Source of the DNA: Escherichia phage LH2
Length of the DNA: 64,000 nucleotides
Sequence record: OQ378934.1
Reading direction: 5' to 3' (one strand)
The position numbers were made by a program, and so were the translations under genes. Of the stretch, positions 6,192 through 23,433 are shown in pieces (positions within the stretch are counted from its first letter, which is position 1; each line of letters begins with the position of its first letter). The notes under the pieces are model-generated. The model saw only the letters and a program-made list of their open reading frames with translations, had not been told where the DNA came from and searched no databases.

Positions 6192-6526
6192 TGAATTTAA
6201 CTGATATAATTGATAATTGTCTTGAAAATGATACTGGTGATCATAGAGCGCTTGACTCTGAAACAGCAAAGTTCATTAGAATAACTTTAATGAATGACAC
6301 TCTAGTGAATAGTATTCATCCTTCTGTGTATGATGCTATTATTGTGACGAAGTATCCAGTTGAGCTTCACAAAAAGATGACTGGCGCAGTTTTTATTGAT
6401 AAGAAAAACCGCTTTAAAGATGGGCAGAATATAATTAGTTCTGTTATTAAAAGTATAACTAAACTTCGTCACGAAATTTATCGTGTTGAAACTGCTAAAT
6501 CTGCTTATCTGGTGATTATGAAATGA
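6188..6526 (+). CDS. Hypothetical protein, 112 aa
   Basis: Coupled ORF (ATGA overlaps on both sides). Confidence 0.4.
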   Translation: MMNLTDIIDNCLENDTGDHRALDSETAKFIRITLMNDTLVNSIHPSVYDAIIVTKYPVELHKKMTGAVFIDKKNRFKDGQNIISSVIKSITKLRHEIYRVETAKSAYLVIMK

Positions 6527-7104
6527 AAGCGAGTACAGTACTTCAAATTGCATATTTAGTATCGCAGGAATCAAAATGTTGCTCCTGGAAGGTAGGAGCA
6601 GTAATTGAAAAGAATGGACGTATTATTTCTACTGGGTATAATGGTTCCCCCGCAGGGGGTGTGAACTGTTGTGATTATGCTGCTGAGCAAGGTTGGTTGT
6701 TGAATAAGCCTAAACATACTATCATTCAAGGTCATAAGCCTGAATGCGTATCATTTGGTTTAACTGATCGTTTTGTCTTGGCGAAAGAACATCGTAGTGC
6801 TCACTCGGAATGGTCATCTAAAAATGAAATTCATGCTGAACTAAATGCAATTTTGTTTGCTGCACGAAATGGTTCTTCTATTGAAGGTGCTACTATGTAT
6901 GTAACACTTTCTCCTTGTCCGGATTGCGCAAAAGCGATAGCTCAATCTGGTATTAAAAAGCTAGTTTATTGTGAAACATATGATAAAAATAAACCTGGCT
7001 GGGATGATATTCTGCGAAATGCAGGTATTGAAGTGTTTAATGTTCCTAAGAAAAACTTGAATAAGTTAAACTGGGAAAATATCAACGAATTCTGTGGTGA
7101 ATAA
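6523..7104 (+). CDS. cd: dCMP deaminase, 193 aa
   Basis: Zinc-binding motifs HAELNAI and PCPDCAKA; length as T4 Cd. Confidence 0.9.
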   Translation: MKASTVLQIAYLVSQESKCCSWKVGAVIEKNGRIISTGYNGSPAGGVNCCDYAAEQGWLLNKPKHTIIQGHKPECVSFGLTDRFVLAKEHRSAHSEWSSKNEIHAELNAILFAARNGSSIEGATMYVTLSPCPDCAKAIAQSGIKKLVYCETYDKNKPGWDDILRNAGIEVFNVPKKNLNKLNWENINEFCGE

Positions 7105-7705: not shown

Positions 7706-8041
7706 ATGTCTGAAGTACAACAGCTACCAATTCGTGCTGTCGGTGAATATGTTATTTTAGTTTCTGAACCTGCGCAAGCCGGTGATGAAGAAGTTACAGA
7801 ATCAGGACTTATTATTGGTAAACGTGTCCAAGGTGAAGTTCCTGAACTGTGTGTAGTTCACTCTGTTGGTCCTGATGTTCCTGAAGGTTTCTGCGAAGTT
7901 GGTGATTTGACTTCTCTTCCAGTTGGTCAAATTCGAAACGTTCCTCATCCTTTTGTAGCTCTGGGTCTTAAGCAGCCAAAAGAAATTAAACAAAAATTCG
8001 TAACCTGTCACTATAAAGCTATTCCGTGTCTTTATAAGTGA
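7706..8041 (+). CDS. 31: Gp31 co-chaperonin (GroES-like), 111 aa
   Basis: [29 protein letters not shown]... matches T4 gp31; length 111 aa. Confidence 0.9.
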
Positions 8042-8049
8042 TATAAATA
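8042..8049 (+). promoter_or_regulatory. Late promoter motif TATAAATA upstream of rIII
   Basis: Exact tataaata immediately after gene 31 stop. Confidence 0.35.
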
Positions 8050-8188
8050 ATAATATGAATTGGGTGTCGGAATAATAAGTTAACCGAACAATTCTATGTG
8101 GTAGTCTACAACTGAGAGATCTGTCGAAAGAAGATGAAATTCAGAAGAACGTGACTACCGAGTTTTAATCTCTAACGAGAATTTTTAA

Positions 8189-8437
8189 ATGATTAAACAA
8201 TTACAACACGCTCTTGAACTGCAACGAAACGCATGGAATAATGGTCACGAAAACTATGGCGCATCTATTGATGTTGAAGCCGAAGCTCTTGAAATCCTGC
8301 GTTATTTCAAACATCTGAATCCTGCTCAAACTGCATTAGCCGCTGAGCTTCAGGAAAAAGATGAACTTAAATATGCTAAGCCTCTGGCTTCTGCCGCACG
8401 AAAAGCAGTTCGTCACTTTGTGGTAACACTGAAGTAA
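8189..8437 (+). CDS. rIII: rIII lysis-inhibition accessory protein, 82 aa
   Basis: MIKQLQHALELQRNAWNNGHENYGASIDVEAEALEILRYF... matches T4 rIII; 82 aa. Confidence 0.85.
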   Translation: MIKQLQHALELQRNAWNNGHENYGASIDVEAEALEILRYFKHLNPAQTALAAELQEKDELKYAKPLASAARKAVRHFVVTLK

Positions 8438-8835
8438 TTTATTGGAGAGTCACTGCCTTAGTGTGAAGTTAAAACGAGGAGCCGTCGAACTGTCTGATTA
8501 ATGATTTGCGAATCATTATAGTTTTAAGACCCCGGCAGTTTTACGGTGTACCTCTTGAATGTTATTCTTATAGCGGCAAGTGCATGCTACCCCGAGGTGA
8601 TGGCTAATCGGGAGTACGCCTCAAGGCCTATATATCCATCAGTATATATCTTATCCTCGAGAAATCGGACCCGGAACCTTTAAGCTAACGGTGTGCAACA
8701 GATAAGAGCTATAAGGTATGATGACGGGTTTATGGTTATCCTGGTCGTTAAATATTCAAAAACCTATGTTCCCCTTGAGGGCTTGCGCAGGCAATGCCAA
8801 TAAGTCCTGCATTTTCATTTAAAAGAGAATTTATA

Positions 8836-9012
8836 ATGGCAAAACAAGCTAAAGCAAAGAAAGCAGTTGAAAAGAAAGTTGGTGATTCTAAACGCGCTGG
8901 TTACAAGCGTGGGTCGAACTCTCGTATCAATCAAACTGTTGAGAAGATCATGCGCCGAGCACGTGCGGTTCTTCGAGATGATGCTTCTCGTTTTGGTAAG
9001 CAGAAAGCATAA
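8836..9012 (+). CDS. Small lysine/arginine-rich basic protein, 58 aa
   Basis: MAKQAKAKKAVEKKVGDSKRAGYKRGS...; followed directly by a strong intrinsic terminator. Confidence 0.5.
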   Translation: MAKQAKAKKAVEKKVGDSKRAGYKRGSNSRINQTVEKIMRRARAVLRDDASRFGKQKA

Positions 9013-9016
9013 GTTA

Positions 9017-9046
9017 AGGACTCCTTCGGGAGTCCTTTTTTATTTT
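9017..9046 (+). terminator. Rho-independent terminator (aggactcc-ttcg-ggagtcct + T-run)
   Basis: Perfect 8 bp stem with UUCG tetraloop followed by tttttatttt. Confidence 0.8.
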
Positions 9047-9065
9047 CCAAAGATTGCACAAAGTT

Positions 9066-9095
9066 GTTTACAGTATGGTTCCTTTGTGATAGTAT
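9066..9095 (+). promoter_or_regulatory. T4 early-type promoter (GTTTAC, 18 nt spacer, TAGTAT/TATTAT)
   Basis: gtttac 9066-9071; -10-like 9090-9098. Confidence 0.4.
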
Positions 9096-9122
9096 TATCT
9101 TACACAAACAAAGGAGAATAAA

Positions 9123-9173
9123 ATGAAAACGATTAATCGGGTTACGGTCATTGGGCTGATGTTGAAATTATAA
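9123..9173 (+). CDS. 16-codon mini-ORF with strong SD (aaggag), hydrophobic peptide MKTINRVTVIGLMLKL
   Basis: aaggagaataaaATG; stop 9 nt before the NADAR ATG. Confidence 0.3.
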   Translation: MKTINRVTVIGLMLKL

Positions 9174-9182
9174 GTATTAAAG

Positions 9183-9641
9183 ATGTCTGAATTAGAGATT
9201 AGAAGCAATTTTAGATGGCCATCATGTGCATTAAGCAATTTCGCCCAATGGCCTTTCGTTATGGATGGTATCCAATTTGGAGGTCTCGAAGGATTCCTCC
9301 AAGGATGTAAGGTGAAAAATGTTGAACACCAACGTCGTATATTTGGGTTATCTGGGCTTGCCGCCCAACAAGCTGGAAGGTCTTATGCTAGAGCTCAGGA
9401 CCGTGGCACGTTGTTCTGGCTTGGAACTCCGTTTTCAAGATACTCCTCAGCGTGGAAAGAATTATACACAAATGCATATTTTGAAGCAGCGTTCCAAAAC
9501 AAGGGCTTTCGTGATGCATTACAAGTCTCGAAAGGAAAAGTTTTGAAGCACAGCATGGCTAGTGGTCTAACAAAAGATGATACAATACTAACCGAAGCTG
9601 AATTTATTGATGTGTTAAACCTATTAAGAGACTCTCTATGA
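9183..9641 (+). CDS. NADAR-domain protein (YbiA-like), 152 aa
   Basis: SNFAQWPFVMDGIQFGGLEGFLQGCK resembles the YbiA/NADAR core (E. coli YbiA FSNFAAWPIKVDGKTWPTSEHYFQAQK); GC content visibly higher than flanking genes. Confidence 0.6.
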   Translation: MSELEIRSNFRWPSCALSNFAQWPFVMDGIQFGGLEGFLQGCKVKNVEHQRRIFGLSGLAAQQAGRSYARAQDRGTLFWLGTPFSRYSSAWKELYTNAYFEAAFQNKGFRDALQVSKGKVLKHSMASGLTKDDTILTEAEFIDVLNLLRDSL

Positions 9642-23209: not shown

Positions 23210-23377
23210 ATGTCAGATAAGATTTGTGTTGTCTGTAAAACTCCAATCGATTCTGCATTGGTTGTTGAAACAGACAAAGGTCCTGTACATCCTGGGCCTT
23301 GCTATAATTACATTAAAGAACTACCAGTTTCAGAAAGTTCGGAAGAACAATTAAATGAAACACAACTTTTGCTATAG
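23210..23377 (+). CDS. uvsY.-2: Small zinc-ribbon-like ORF (uvsY.-2-like), 55 aa
   Basis: SD gaggag upstream; CVVC...HPGPC motif. Confidence 0.4.
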   Translation: MSDKICVVCKTPIDSALVVETDKGPVHPGPCYNYIKELPVSESSEEQLNETQLLL

Positions 23378-23400
23378 TGTGACCTTTAGTCTATAGTTTT

Positions 23401-23430
23401 GGCCCTTCCTTTTTGGTTGGGCCTTTTTTT
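23401..23430 (+). terminator. Intrinsic terminator (ggccc...gggcc hairpin + T7 run) ending the uvsY operon
   Basis: G/C stem followed by ttttttt. Confidence 0.55.
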
Positions 23431-23433
23431 AAT

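Follow-up and report, generated by a model that had tools for sequence, protein, structure and literature searches.

The aptamers of lysine (L-box) and purine riboswitches are closed by a P1 helix that opens into a multi-helix junction, with two neighbouring arms joined by covarying kissing loops and with invariant nucleotides in the junctions. In phi29 pRNA, a phage RNA in the range of approximately 120-170 nt, two complementary loops covary between related phages while the stems change; these loops pair between molecules to give a ring on the portal, and the RNA, which has a three-way junction, is encoded beside the packaging genes of small Bacillus podoviruses. T4 rnaC and rnaD (species 1 and 2) are T-even non-coding RNAs of 119-139 nt with no known function, located in the tRNA cluster. 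A perfect four-way junction, docking of arms and invariant unpaired blocks are typical of small ribozymes (e.g. the natural hairpin ribozyme and twister-sister), and small ribozymes are common in phage intergenic regions. ROOL and GOLLD are elaborate phage RNAs, several hundred nucleotides in length, which are supported by covariation, are not tied to a neighbouring gene and have no assigned function. The PeSL cassettes of T4-type phages are conserved non-coding modules of variable regions that are gained, lost and shuffled as cassettes, and reportedly consist of an early promoter and a terminator stem-loop acting at the level of DNA or transcription.

The locus described here lies between rIII and the 30.9 homologue of Escherichia phage LH2 (OQ378934.1), in a 64,000-nt stretch referred to below as the window. 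Comparative analysis suggests that positions 8568-8715 of its + strand (the core) are probably a previously undescribed structured non-coding RNA of approximately 148 nt found in T4-like phages of Enterobacterales. The core shares the lysine and purine aptamer features listed above and has, in one arm, a conserved internal loop that could make a turn, but its junction order and sequence differ, it had no covariance-model match, it lacks a conserved expression platform and in one lineage it lacks a downstream gene. Its two covarying loops recall phi29 pRNA; however, the covariation fits pairing in cis or in trans and the junction is four-way, and assignment as a phi29-type pRNA is not supported, since Rfam gave no match and the neighbours are rIII and 30.9 or open reading frames (ORFs) of the uvsY region, not packaging genes. 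The unlinked four-way junction, interacting arms and conserved internal loops are shared with the hairpin and twister-sister ribozymes, whose signature loops are absent from the core and whose Rfam models gave no match. T4 rnaC and rnaD were discarded as paralogues because no sequence resemblance was apparent by eye and the core model had no match in their locus or in T4. A PeSL assignment was likewise dropped, since the core lacks promoter and terminator sites, has three times the size and is under constraint as a folded RNA; a PeSL-like pair is found instead at 9016-9095. ROOL and GOLLD, which are far larger than the core, belong to different groups of phages and bacteria and are listed in Rfam, in which the core has no match.

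The interval between rIII and 30.9

The first-pass annotation had singled out 8438-8835 as an ORF-free, GC-elevated segment. The absence of ORFs of at least 60 codons was confirmed, the longest ORF inside being 45 aa, and 8438-8793 (356 nt) was the largest gap without ORFs of at least 60 aa in a scan of the 64-kb window, followed by gaps of 156 and 147 nt. The GC elevation is present but only modest: the interval contains 42.0% GC compared with a window mean of 36.1% (94th percentile of 398-nt windows), the core contains 46.6% (97th percentile of 148-nt windows), and rIII contains approximately 43%.

The start codon of 30.9 is most likely the ATG at 8837, and neither Pfam nor PHROG had a family matching its product. 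Scans of 8438-8835 detected neither promoter-like nor terminator-like sites, no sigma-70-like promoter was detected between rIII and the core, and no intrinsic terminator 3' of the core. Because no promoter of its own was found, the core RNA is most likely co-transcribed with rIII and carried on the rIII-30.9 message. The core begins approximately 10 nt past the rIII stop codon in Moonvirus and Roskildevirus. Look-alikes of extended -10 elements, MotA boxes and late promoters noted by eye were weak and restricted to single lineages, and a few of them would interrupt P1. The interval is particularly prone to indels and to the exchange of one cassette for another, and several GenBank records annotate small hypothetical ORFs over the core.

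Fold and covariation of the core

Table 1. Features in and around the rIII-30.9 interval of phage LH2 (window coordinates).
Feature	Position	Strand	Description and basis
rIII	8189-8437	+	Upstream gene, same strand; ORF list and homologue annotation
5' flank module	8476-8554	+	Y-shaped stem around a hairpin; also in T4; minimum-free-energy (MFE) fold
5' flank stems	8481-8485 / 8543-8547; 8487-8494 / 8534-8541	+	Enclose a perfect 8-bp hairpin, 8499-8506 / 8511-8518
Core, predicted structured RNA (148 nt)	8568-8715	+	Covariance model, RNAalifold, covariation
P1	8570-8574 (AUAGC) / 8708-8712 (GCUAU)	+	Closes the whole element
Arm P2-P3	8575-8628	+	Covariation (P3), invariance (P2)
P2	8575-8577 (GGC) / 8626-8628 (GCC)	+	Invariant across homologues
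P2/P3 internal loop	8578-8585 (AAGUGCAU) / 8620-8625 (CUCAAG)	+	Almost invariant
P3	8586-8595 / 8608-8619	+	Conserved bulged A at 8613; terminal loop 8596-8607
Kissing hexamer, P3 loop	8598-8603 (UGAUGG)	+	Complement is CCAUCA, 8636-8641, in the P4 loop
P4 hairpin (7 bp)	8629-8648 (8629-8635 / 8642-8648)	+	Loop with CCAUCA, 8636-8641
Arm P5	8649-8707 (8649-8655 / 8701-8707)	+	Encloses P6, P7 and junction GCAACA, 8695-8700
P6	8657-8660 / 8665-8668	+	GNRA tetraloop GAAA, 8661-8664
P7	8669-8673 / 8689-8694	+	15-nt loop 8674-8688, largely conserved
Module B	8716-8768	+	Candidate H-type pseudoknot; one copy in the window; also in T4
Module C hairpin	8768-8785	+	GUUCCCC-UUGA-GGG, then CUUG; includes ccttgagg
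Stem and putative Shine-Dalgarno-occluding hairpin	8787-8829	+	Read from the sequence
30.9 homologue	8837-9012	+	Downstream gene, 58-aa basic protein; ORF list and T4 annotation
UUCG-tetraloop terminator	9016-9047		3' of 30.9; terminator scan

The core is predicted to form a perfect four-way junction of P1, P2-P3, P4 and P5 in which no unpaired nucleotides link the helices; a further three-way junction joins P5 to P6 and P7 (Table 1). All five P1 pairs covary (UA/AU/CG, AU/UA/GC and others), and changes on both sides were found for 9 of the 10 pairs of P3, 4/7 of P4, 5/7 of P5, 4/4 of P6 and 2/5 of P7, where CCCG/CGG becomes CCUG/CAG in Slopekvirus. The P6 loop GAAA is replaced by GUAA or UAAA in relatives, so that the GNRA loops GAAA and GUAA are both represented in the family. 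Approximately 45 unpaired nucleotides are invariant (AAGKGCAU/CUYAWG, CCCGGAMCC and GCUAACRGUGUGCAAC), and invariant nucleotides are found at the junction.

Comparison with other T4-like genomes, proposed in the first-pass annotation as a check, revealed both conservation and compensatory substitutions. The RNAalifold consensus contained 44 pairs, 20 of them with compensatory changes. Across 34 distinct sequences 98.8% of cells were paired and 31 of the 44 pairs had changed on both sides, in an alignment that was itself fitted to the model. None of 500 shuffles equalled the observed pairing and covariation, a statistic that overstates independence as the sequence diversity comprises only approximately eight lineages; slid controls gave 25-44% paired cells and 3-8 double-change pairs. 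The core matched its covariance model at 175.7 bits, with no other match in the 64-kb window; the diverged copy from Slopekvirus scored 88.5 bits and kept every helix through compensatory changes. Furthermore, G-U pairs are numerous and confined to the + strand; a U-G pair closes P4 in 30 of the 34 sequences, indicating an RNA on the + strand, and a P6 U-G pair occurs in 9 of the 34.

Folding energies did not distinguish the element. For the 398-nt interval and the core alone, on both strands, the MFE was no better than in shuffled sequences (z = -0.38, -0.11, -0.63 and -0.53), so that thermodynamics alone would miss the element, and thermodynamic folding was dropped as a criterion because no fold was significant against shuffles. 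The first-pass annotation had named such an outcome as one that would speak against a structured RNA; formally that outcome was obtained, but the test is a weak one and is overridden by the compensatory substitutions. On the comparative sequence data, the core has been selected as an RNA on the + strand and is non-coding.

The opposing reading is that the core is no functional RNA but decayed coding sequence, recent junk DNA or a DNA-level site (protein binding, recombination hotspot or origin). The indel and cassette hotspot, the small ORFs annotated in GenBank and the unremarkable folding energies would all suit this reading, to which we nevertheless assign a negligible probability: the core is more conserved than its neighbouring genes, its loop-loop pairing covaries, its G-U pairs are strand-specific, and the double substitutions described above effectively refute it. 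A decayed gene remnant, one of the origins first suggested for the segment, was rejected since each of the 34 distinct homologues has stops in all six frames, single-nucleotide and 7-nt indels break the frame, substitutions are paired across stems and are not coding-like, and no Pfam or PHROG family matched the core; the 'hypothetical proteins' called over the core in many GenBank records are spurious. A second suggestion, host-derived or horizontally acquired DNA, found no source: blastn searches of 5,426 E. coli genomes returned no copy of the core, and conserved-motif scans of 185,579 bacterial and archaeal species, one genome each, gave only one chance match. A third, a protein-binding element acting as DNA, is at odds with the G-U wobble pairs and with the covariation between the loops.

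The predicted kissing interaction between P3 and P4 comprises 6 bp and occurs in six complementary hexamer versions across lineages, including CGAUGG/CCAUCG, UGAUGG/CCAUCA, CUAUGG/CCAUAG, CAAUGA/UCAUUG in Cronus (lengthened to 8 bp in EcS1) and UGCAUU/AAUGCA in Slopekvirus. An all-against-all column scan for further tertiary pairs was too noisy, given the few lineages, and only the kissing loop stood out; pairing between the P7 and CUCAAG loops was rejected, as it showed no covariation. The hexamer covariation fits trans as well as cis pairing, and the loops might instead join separate molecules into dimers, rings or a multimeric scaffold, as in the rings of phi29 pRNA and the multimers of ROOL, GOLLD and OLE. 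The arms are unequal, with approximately 13 bp and a large internal loop in P2+P3 and 7 bp in P4, so intramolecular kissing needs a sharp turn, and both Slopekvirus loops are 6 nt long and could pair entirely. However, a stack of P2 and P4 (3 and 7 bp) would be just as long as the 10 bp of P3, so a fold-back at the conserved internal loop could bring the loops together in one molecule, and we know of no T4-type packaging motor that needs RNA. Multimerization is considered improbable.

The proposal of a structured non-coding RNA was thus right in kind, with strong covariation behind it, but not in extent: the interval is not one 400-nt fold but the 148-nt core together with smaller independent modules. 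The long-range complementary segments noted at the outset (8619-8626 with 8773-8780, and 8475-8480 with 8654-8659) are literal reverse complements; matches of 6-8 nt are expected by chance, the pairings are unsupported, and the comparative data place each of the four segments in a different local element. Positions 8619-8626 form the 3' side of the internal loop and a P2 strand within the core, 8654-8659 are part of P5/P6, 8773-8780 belong to a self-contained hairpin kept by T4 despite the absence of the core, and 8475-8480 are part of the 5' flank stem.

No known RNA family had been recognised by eye at the outset, and database scans gave none above chance level. The 4,227 covariance models of Rfam 15 gave no match at gathering thresholds in the whole window, a scan of 8000-9200 gave nothing within 8438-8835 at E<=10, and a scan of 8555-8735 alone gave two chance-level matches of 11.8 and 10.4 bits (sobemo_FSE and a snoRNA). 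ARAGORN detected no tRNA or tmRNA in the window, and the core contains no T-loop sequence. Short by-eye matches to the RNase P S-domain (GUGCAACAGA, UAAGAGC and CAAGGCC-AUA) were non-collinear and the RNase P models had no match; K-turn, loop E, sarcin-ricin and 11-nt tetraloop-receptor assignments of the P2/P3 internal loop failed at varying positions or lacked the required G-A pairs; and a fluoride riboswitch (GGCGAUGG) and Shine-Dalgarno mimicry (GAGGUGAU) were dismissed because neither sequence is conserved across lineages. Full-text literature searches, including exact sequence strings, returned no description of the core, which a 2023 catalogue of viral structured RNAs (PMC10690425) could include.

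Distribution of the core and its flanking modules

The core was present in 407 phage records representing at least 11 T4-like genera. It was 82-97% identical in Dhakavirus, Jiaodavirus, Karamvirus, Kanagawavirus, Marfavirus and Muldoonvirus, compared with 60-89% for gp31, rIII and 30.9, and was the best conserved of the four in seven of eight comparisons. T4 precisely lacks approximately 8565-8717, just outside the ends of P1, while its flanks are approximately 97% identical, and the complete T4 genome contained no match to the core at E<=10. T2 also lacks the core, and in some other phages this site is occupied by a small cassette of a different kind. The core is an optional cassette. Metagenomes yielded 13 matches, all of them full-length copies and mostly on contigs of T4-like size, and motif scans for more distant homologues in IMG/VR, metagenomes and bacterial genomes recovered T4-like phages only, plus two chance matches (L023 and L097). 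The core RNA is probably specific to T4-like phages of Enterobacterales.

The remaining approximately 250 nt of the interval probably consist of smaller independent RNA modules common to T4. The 5' flank module shows few substitutions in T4 and in homologue L047, with pairing kept or improved; the homologues are too alike for this to give more than weak support. Module B runs in the order GUAUGAUG, stem A, the 5' half of stem B, AUC, stem A', CGUUAAA... and stem B', with double changes in 9 of 13 pairs and 76.5% of cells paired compared with 33-52% in slid controls. It precedes the core in JD18 and Muldoon and follows it in this window, a difference in position that suggests an independent module. 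Module C occurs once in the window and once in the complete T4 genome; its motif lies directly 3' of the Slopekvirus core copy (1263-1280 of locus L009) and 5' of the core in COW86c and EcS1. The order of core, module B and module C varies between genera. Closest to 30.9, GCAGG (8787-8791) may pair with CCUGC (8806-8810), followed by a hairpin of UUUUC (8813-8817) and GAGAA (8825-8829) that would occlude the 30.9 Shine-Dalgarno region. Other genera have equivalent closing stems and occluding hairpins of differing sequence.

Candidate roles of the core RNA

In 10 of the 11 genera the core precedes 30.9 on the same strand. This placement raises the possibility of a cis-acting leader, i.e. a riboswitch or protein-binding operator that would sense a ligand or the basic 30.9 protein and control 30.9 translation or stability. 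The complexity of the core and its invariant junction nucleotides resemble riboswitch aptamers, including a conserved aptamer-like domain with covariation; the 30.9 Shine-Dalgarno region falls inside a hairpin in most genera, and 30.9 is a small, very basic protein with no assigned function. Slopekvirus is the exception. There, a diverged copy occupies a second locus past the uvsY operon, at the operon 3' end, facing a convergent helicase gene; the copy itself is approximately 92% conserved while its own flanks diverge, and no conserved ORF lies between it and a bidirectional terminator. The absence of a downstream gene argues against the core as a 30.9 leader. Furthermore, 30.9 is expressed in T4, whose leader is the same apart from lacking the core, and elsewhere 45-150 nt of modules of variable content and order separate the 3' strand of P1 from the start codon, suggesting that no conserved expression platform is coupled to P1; no conserved alternative pairing with the P1 3' strand was found. 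The core is not followed by an intrinsic terminator and matches no Rfam riboswitch. On balance a leader function appears unlikely.

The location, intercistronic or operon-terminal, would also suit a catalytic RNA of a new kind, self-cleaving or otherwise, by which the rIII-30.9 transcript is processed or which cuts itself out of it. In its size, its invariant unpaired blocks and the docking of adjacent arms around a perfect four-way junction the core resembles small ribozymes. Searched alone at E<=10, however, the core matched no Rfam ribozyme, and it contains no recognisable cleavage-site motif; by analogy alone, catalysis is a doubtful prospect.

The preferred explanation is a folded RNA that acts on its own. 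The core would be transcribed within the rIII-30.9 message and would work as a self-contained unit rather than as a leader controlling 30.9, with its invariant internal-loop and junction nucleotides presented to a partner, either a protein or a small molecule. Our best guess, that the core binds a protein or ligand through its own fold, is based on which of its unpaired nucleotides are invariant. As the core is dispensable in the laboratory, patchily distributed and confined to phages, the likeliest kind of function would be an accessory one, in host takeover or in counter-defence. More tentatively, the core could be the founding member of a new class of phage RNA, carried as an exchangeable cassette by approximately 400 T4-like phages and serving as a decoy or sponge against some host factor of Enterobacterales or one of their defence systems, or representing a ribozyme or ligand-sensing fold of a new type.

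Few viruses have been studied as thoroughly as T4 and its relatives, and this RNA is without a database entry. The T4-like phages concerned include therapeutic and environmental ones that infect E. coli, Klebsiella, Enterobacter, Yersinia, Salmonella, Serratia and Erwinia. The rIII-30.9 interval appears as an array of exchangeable RNA modules, not junk or a simple spacer. T4 is a natural deletion of the core, so isogenic phages with and without it are easy to build and its function is directly testable. If the core does represent a new class of phage RNA, its absence from the laboratory strains T4 and T2 would explain how sixty years of T4 genetics missed it.

Extent and conservation of the core

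The window derives from a T4-like, Tequatrovirus-type phage. Consistent with the first-pass annotation, which had reported no ORF of at least 60 codons between rIII and 30.9, the longest ORF on either strand encodes 45 aa. At 356 nt, this is the largest stretch in the 64 kb without ORFs of at least 60 aa, followed by stretches of 156 nt (23278-23433) and 147 nt. The elevated G+C content described by that annotation was also observed to a moderate degree: the interval (8438-8835) had 42.0% G+C against a window mean of 36.1% (94th percentile), which is raised, short of extreme.

Searches with blastn matched the interval in 1,009 of 50,697 phage records, with coverage of at least 80% in only 179, and T4 and T2 matched it as two separate pieces. 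According to the alignment, T4 cleanly lacks window ~8565-8717 between flanks that are ~97% identical on both sides, and the segment absent from T4 is the part that stays conserved in distant genera. The conserved unit is a discrete core and does not extend over 400 nt. Core identity was 82-97% in Dhakavirus (JS98), Jiaodavirus (JD18), Karamvirus, Kanagawavirus, Marfavirus, and Muldoonvirus, and 70-78% in Roskildevirus (Cronus) and Kagamiyamavirus (EcS1); Moonvirus (KM16) also carries the core. The non-coding sequence around it was unalignable among these genera. Furthermore, nucleotide identity was higher for the core than for gp31, rIII, and 30.9 in seven of eight comparisons (e.g. 90.6% versus 68%, 76%, and 80%, respectively, for JD18).

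A total of 407 phage records carry the core. IMG/VR scans yielded about 20 contigs, nearly all T4-like in size, and one chance coding match (L023), while a metagenome scan yielded 13 matches, every one full-length and most on large T4-like contigs. A covariance model including Slopekvirus sequences had no match at E<=10 in the complete T4 genome. Motif scans of 185,579 bacterial and archaeal species (one genome each) returned nothing beyond one chance match, which scored 10.8 bits and fell within a coding region of Saprospiraceae. No core-like DNA was detected in 5,426 complete E. coli genomes, which speaks against the host-derived DNA considered in the first-pass annotation. Decayed coding sequence, also considered there, is contradicted by at least one stop in each of the six frames of every homologue, leaving no open frame across them, and by the absence of Pfam or PHROG families matching the small ORFs. 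Indels among homologues are single-base and 7-base. Several GenBank records annotate hypothetical proteins across the core (PP445228.1, PP597396.1, PV864764.1, and many Klebsiella phage records), and in one record a CDS under the 398-nt interval carries the name '1,4-alpha-glucan branching enzyme'. All of these are probably mis-annotations.

Fold and covariation

RNAalifold analysis of 19 distinct sequences predicted 44 pairs, of which 20 show compensatory double changes, and the covariance model for searches was built from this alignment. The model matched the window once (8568-8715, + strand, 175.7 bits) and recovered full-length, far more diverged copies in Slopekvirus (88.5 bits in L009, Klebsiella phage K41P2; 80.7 bits in L076 and L077). 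Across 34 distinct sequences, fitted to the model and representing only about eight lineages, 98.8% of cells held standard pairs and 31 of the 44 pairs showed changes on both sides. These values were matched by none of 500 shuffles, and when the partners were slid by 1-3 columns, pairing fell to 25-44% and only 3-8 pairs had double changes. Folding energies of the interval and core, proposed earlier as a check, were no better than those of dinucleotide shuffles on either strand; the proposed alignment to T4-like genomes revealed both conservation and compensatory substitutions in the core. The core is almost certainly a genuine structured RNA, and a non-functional or DNA-level element is extremely improbable. 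The first-pass annotation was correct in suggesting a structured non-coding RNA, but not in its extent (148 nt, not ~400 nt) or its pairing: the complementary oligomers it listed are present, yet are unsupported as pairings because the partners fall in separate modules and T4 has one without the other.

The core folds as a perfect four-way junction. Its G-U pairs on the + strand would be A-C mismatches on the opposite strand and, together with the GNRA loops, indicate that the functional RNA lies on the same (+) strand as the genes. In all lineages the P3-loop hexamer is complementary to the P4 loop, with six different sequence pairs, and this complementarity is a predicted kissing-loop interaction. 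The covariation may reflect kissing within one molecule or between molecules. Intermolecular kissing is a feature of phi29 pRNA, and a comparable multimeric scaffold appears quite unlikely here; the arm lengths, with P2 (3 bp) and P4 (7 bp) together equal to P3 (10 bp), would fit an intramolecular fold-back placing the P3 and P4 loops together. Invariant unpaired nucleotides cluster in one internal loop and the P5-P6-P7 junction, as in RNAs that have a specific binding partner or catalytic activity. A new ribozyme processing the transcript is considered improbable.

Features of the window and of the core RNA
Feature	Position	Strand	Description
cd	6523-7104	+	
31	7706-8041	+	
Module D	8100-8159	+	31/rIII intergenic; second small structured-RNA candidate
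rIII	8189-8437	+	upstream of interval
5' flank	8476-8554	+	Y-shaped stem with perfect 8-bp hairpin; weakly supported
P1	8570-8574/8708-8712	+	closes core
P2		+	GGC/GCC, invariant
P2-P3 internal loop		+	AAGKGCAU/CUYAWG, nearly invariant
P3		+	10 bp; bulged A conserved
P4		+	7-bp hairpin
P5		+	opens into three-way junction with P6 and P7 (GCAACA)
P6		+	GNRA loop (GAAA, GUAA)
P7		+	15-nt loop, largely conserved
P3/P4 loop pair, this window			UGAUGG/CCAUCA
P3/P4 loop pairs, further			CGAUGG/CCAUCG; CUAUGG/CCAUAG
P3/P4 loop pair, Cronus			CAAUGA/UCAUUG; lengthened to 8 bp in EcS1
P3/P4 loop pair, Slopekvirus			UGCAUU/AAUGCA
Module B	8716-8768	+	candidate H-type pseudoknot
Module C	8768-8785	+	hairpin GUUCCCC-UUGA-GGG, then CUUG
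3' end stem	8787-8810	+	
3' end hairpin	8813-8829	+	occludes 30.9 Shine-Dalgarno region
30.9 homologue	8837 (ATG)-9012	+	downstream of interval
Terminator and promoter	9016-9095	+	UUCG-tetraloop intrinsic terminator, then T4 early-type promoter TTTACA-17-TAGTAT
30.3 homologue	9183-9641	+	Pfam Phage_30_3
DNA ligase 30		+	

Genomic context and neighbouring modules

No sigma-70-type promoter or terminator was detected between rIII and the core, and the core starts ~10 nt past the rIII stop codon in Moonvirus and Roskildevirus, suggesting that rIII, the core, and 30.9 most likely share one transcript, which would end at the UUCG-tetraloop terminator (9016-9047). The terminator followed by an early promoter has the layout of a PeSL-type cassette. 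Compared with T4, genes 30.8 to 30.4 are absent from 9013-9641, and the 30.3 homologue directly follows 30.9.

The core precedes 30.9 in ten genera, as a cis leader or riboswitch controlling 30.9 would. In Slopekvirus, however, it follows uvsY-region ORFs with a convergent helicase gene opposite, and no conserved ORF lies between it and a bidirectional terminator; the core there is ~92% conserved between two genomes with diverged flanks. Moreover, the T4 30.9 leader is the same as here, minus the core. In other Tequatrovirus- and Dhakavirus-like genomes, the core's exact position is occupied by an unrelated ~52-nt cassette (TACTATCACGCGTCAGAAAAAGGTTATCTGTCTAAGTCGTGGTTG); T4 lacks both. These contexts favour a self-contained RNA module, and a leader dedicated to 30.9 is rather doubtful. 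The cassette (L036 ~2870-2925; also L041, L042, and L047) has its own covarying hairpin (CAGA/UCUG versus CAGC/GCUG). In L009, the ~230 nt from the core copy to the bidirectional terminator (1248-1480) are unannotated, ORF-poor, and poorly conserved in L077.

The flanks of the core within the interval, shared with T4, are likewise modular. Module B has double changes in 9 of 13 pairs, with 76.5% of cells paired versus 33-52% in slid controls; it is conserved in T4 and at least seven genera. Its place relative to the core varies among genera: it precedes the core in JD18 and Muldoon but follows it in the window. The module C hairpin, GU(A/U)CCC-NNNN-GGGGCUUG, has a single copy in the window and likewise a single copy in the complete T4 genome. 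This hairpin adjoins the core in most genera, including the separate Slopekvirus locus (L009 1263-1280), as if the two travel together. Module D, present once in the window and without an Rfam match, comprises a closing stem (GGUAGUC/GACUACC), an inner stem (CUGA/UCAG) enclosing a C-GAAA-G hairpin, and invariant UACAAC and GAAGAACGUG. Its motif lies upstream of 30.9 in JD18, myPSH1140, F48, KM16, and Cronus, where the closing stems differ (GGGAGC/GCUCCC, GGCGA/UCGCC).

Relation to known RNAs

In agreement with the first-pass annotation, which had recognised no known family, Rfam 15 gave no match at gathering thresholds across the window and nothing meaningful at E<=10 for the interval region and core alone. 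A sub-threshold Atu_C8 match (32.5 bits, gathering score 50) was simply the 9016-9047 terminator. ARAGORN detected no tRNA or tmRNA in the window, and T4 rnaC and rnaD, compared by eye, do not resemble the core. Among the testable defining features of known families, only the generic 'conserved aptamer-like fold' was found. Full-text literature searches, including exact sequence strings, returned no description of the core; the 2023 viral structured-RNA candidate catalogue was not compared at sequence level. According to a T4 review, no riboswitch or trans-acting regulatory RNA had been characterised in T4 (PMC3014915). The core represents a new RNA family that is absent from Rfam and undescribed in the searchable literature. 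It is probably an accessory structured RNA that T4-like phages carry as an autonomous unit. It would act through its own fold upon a partner, either a protein or a small molecule, and a role in host takeover or counter-defence is plausible. The core adds an RNA family to a virus group that ranks among the most studied, and T4 provides a ready-made natural deletion of the core for experiments.
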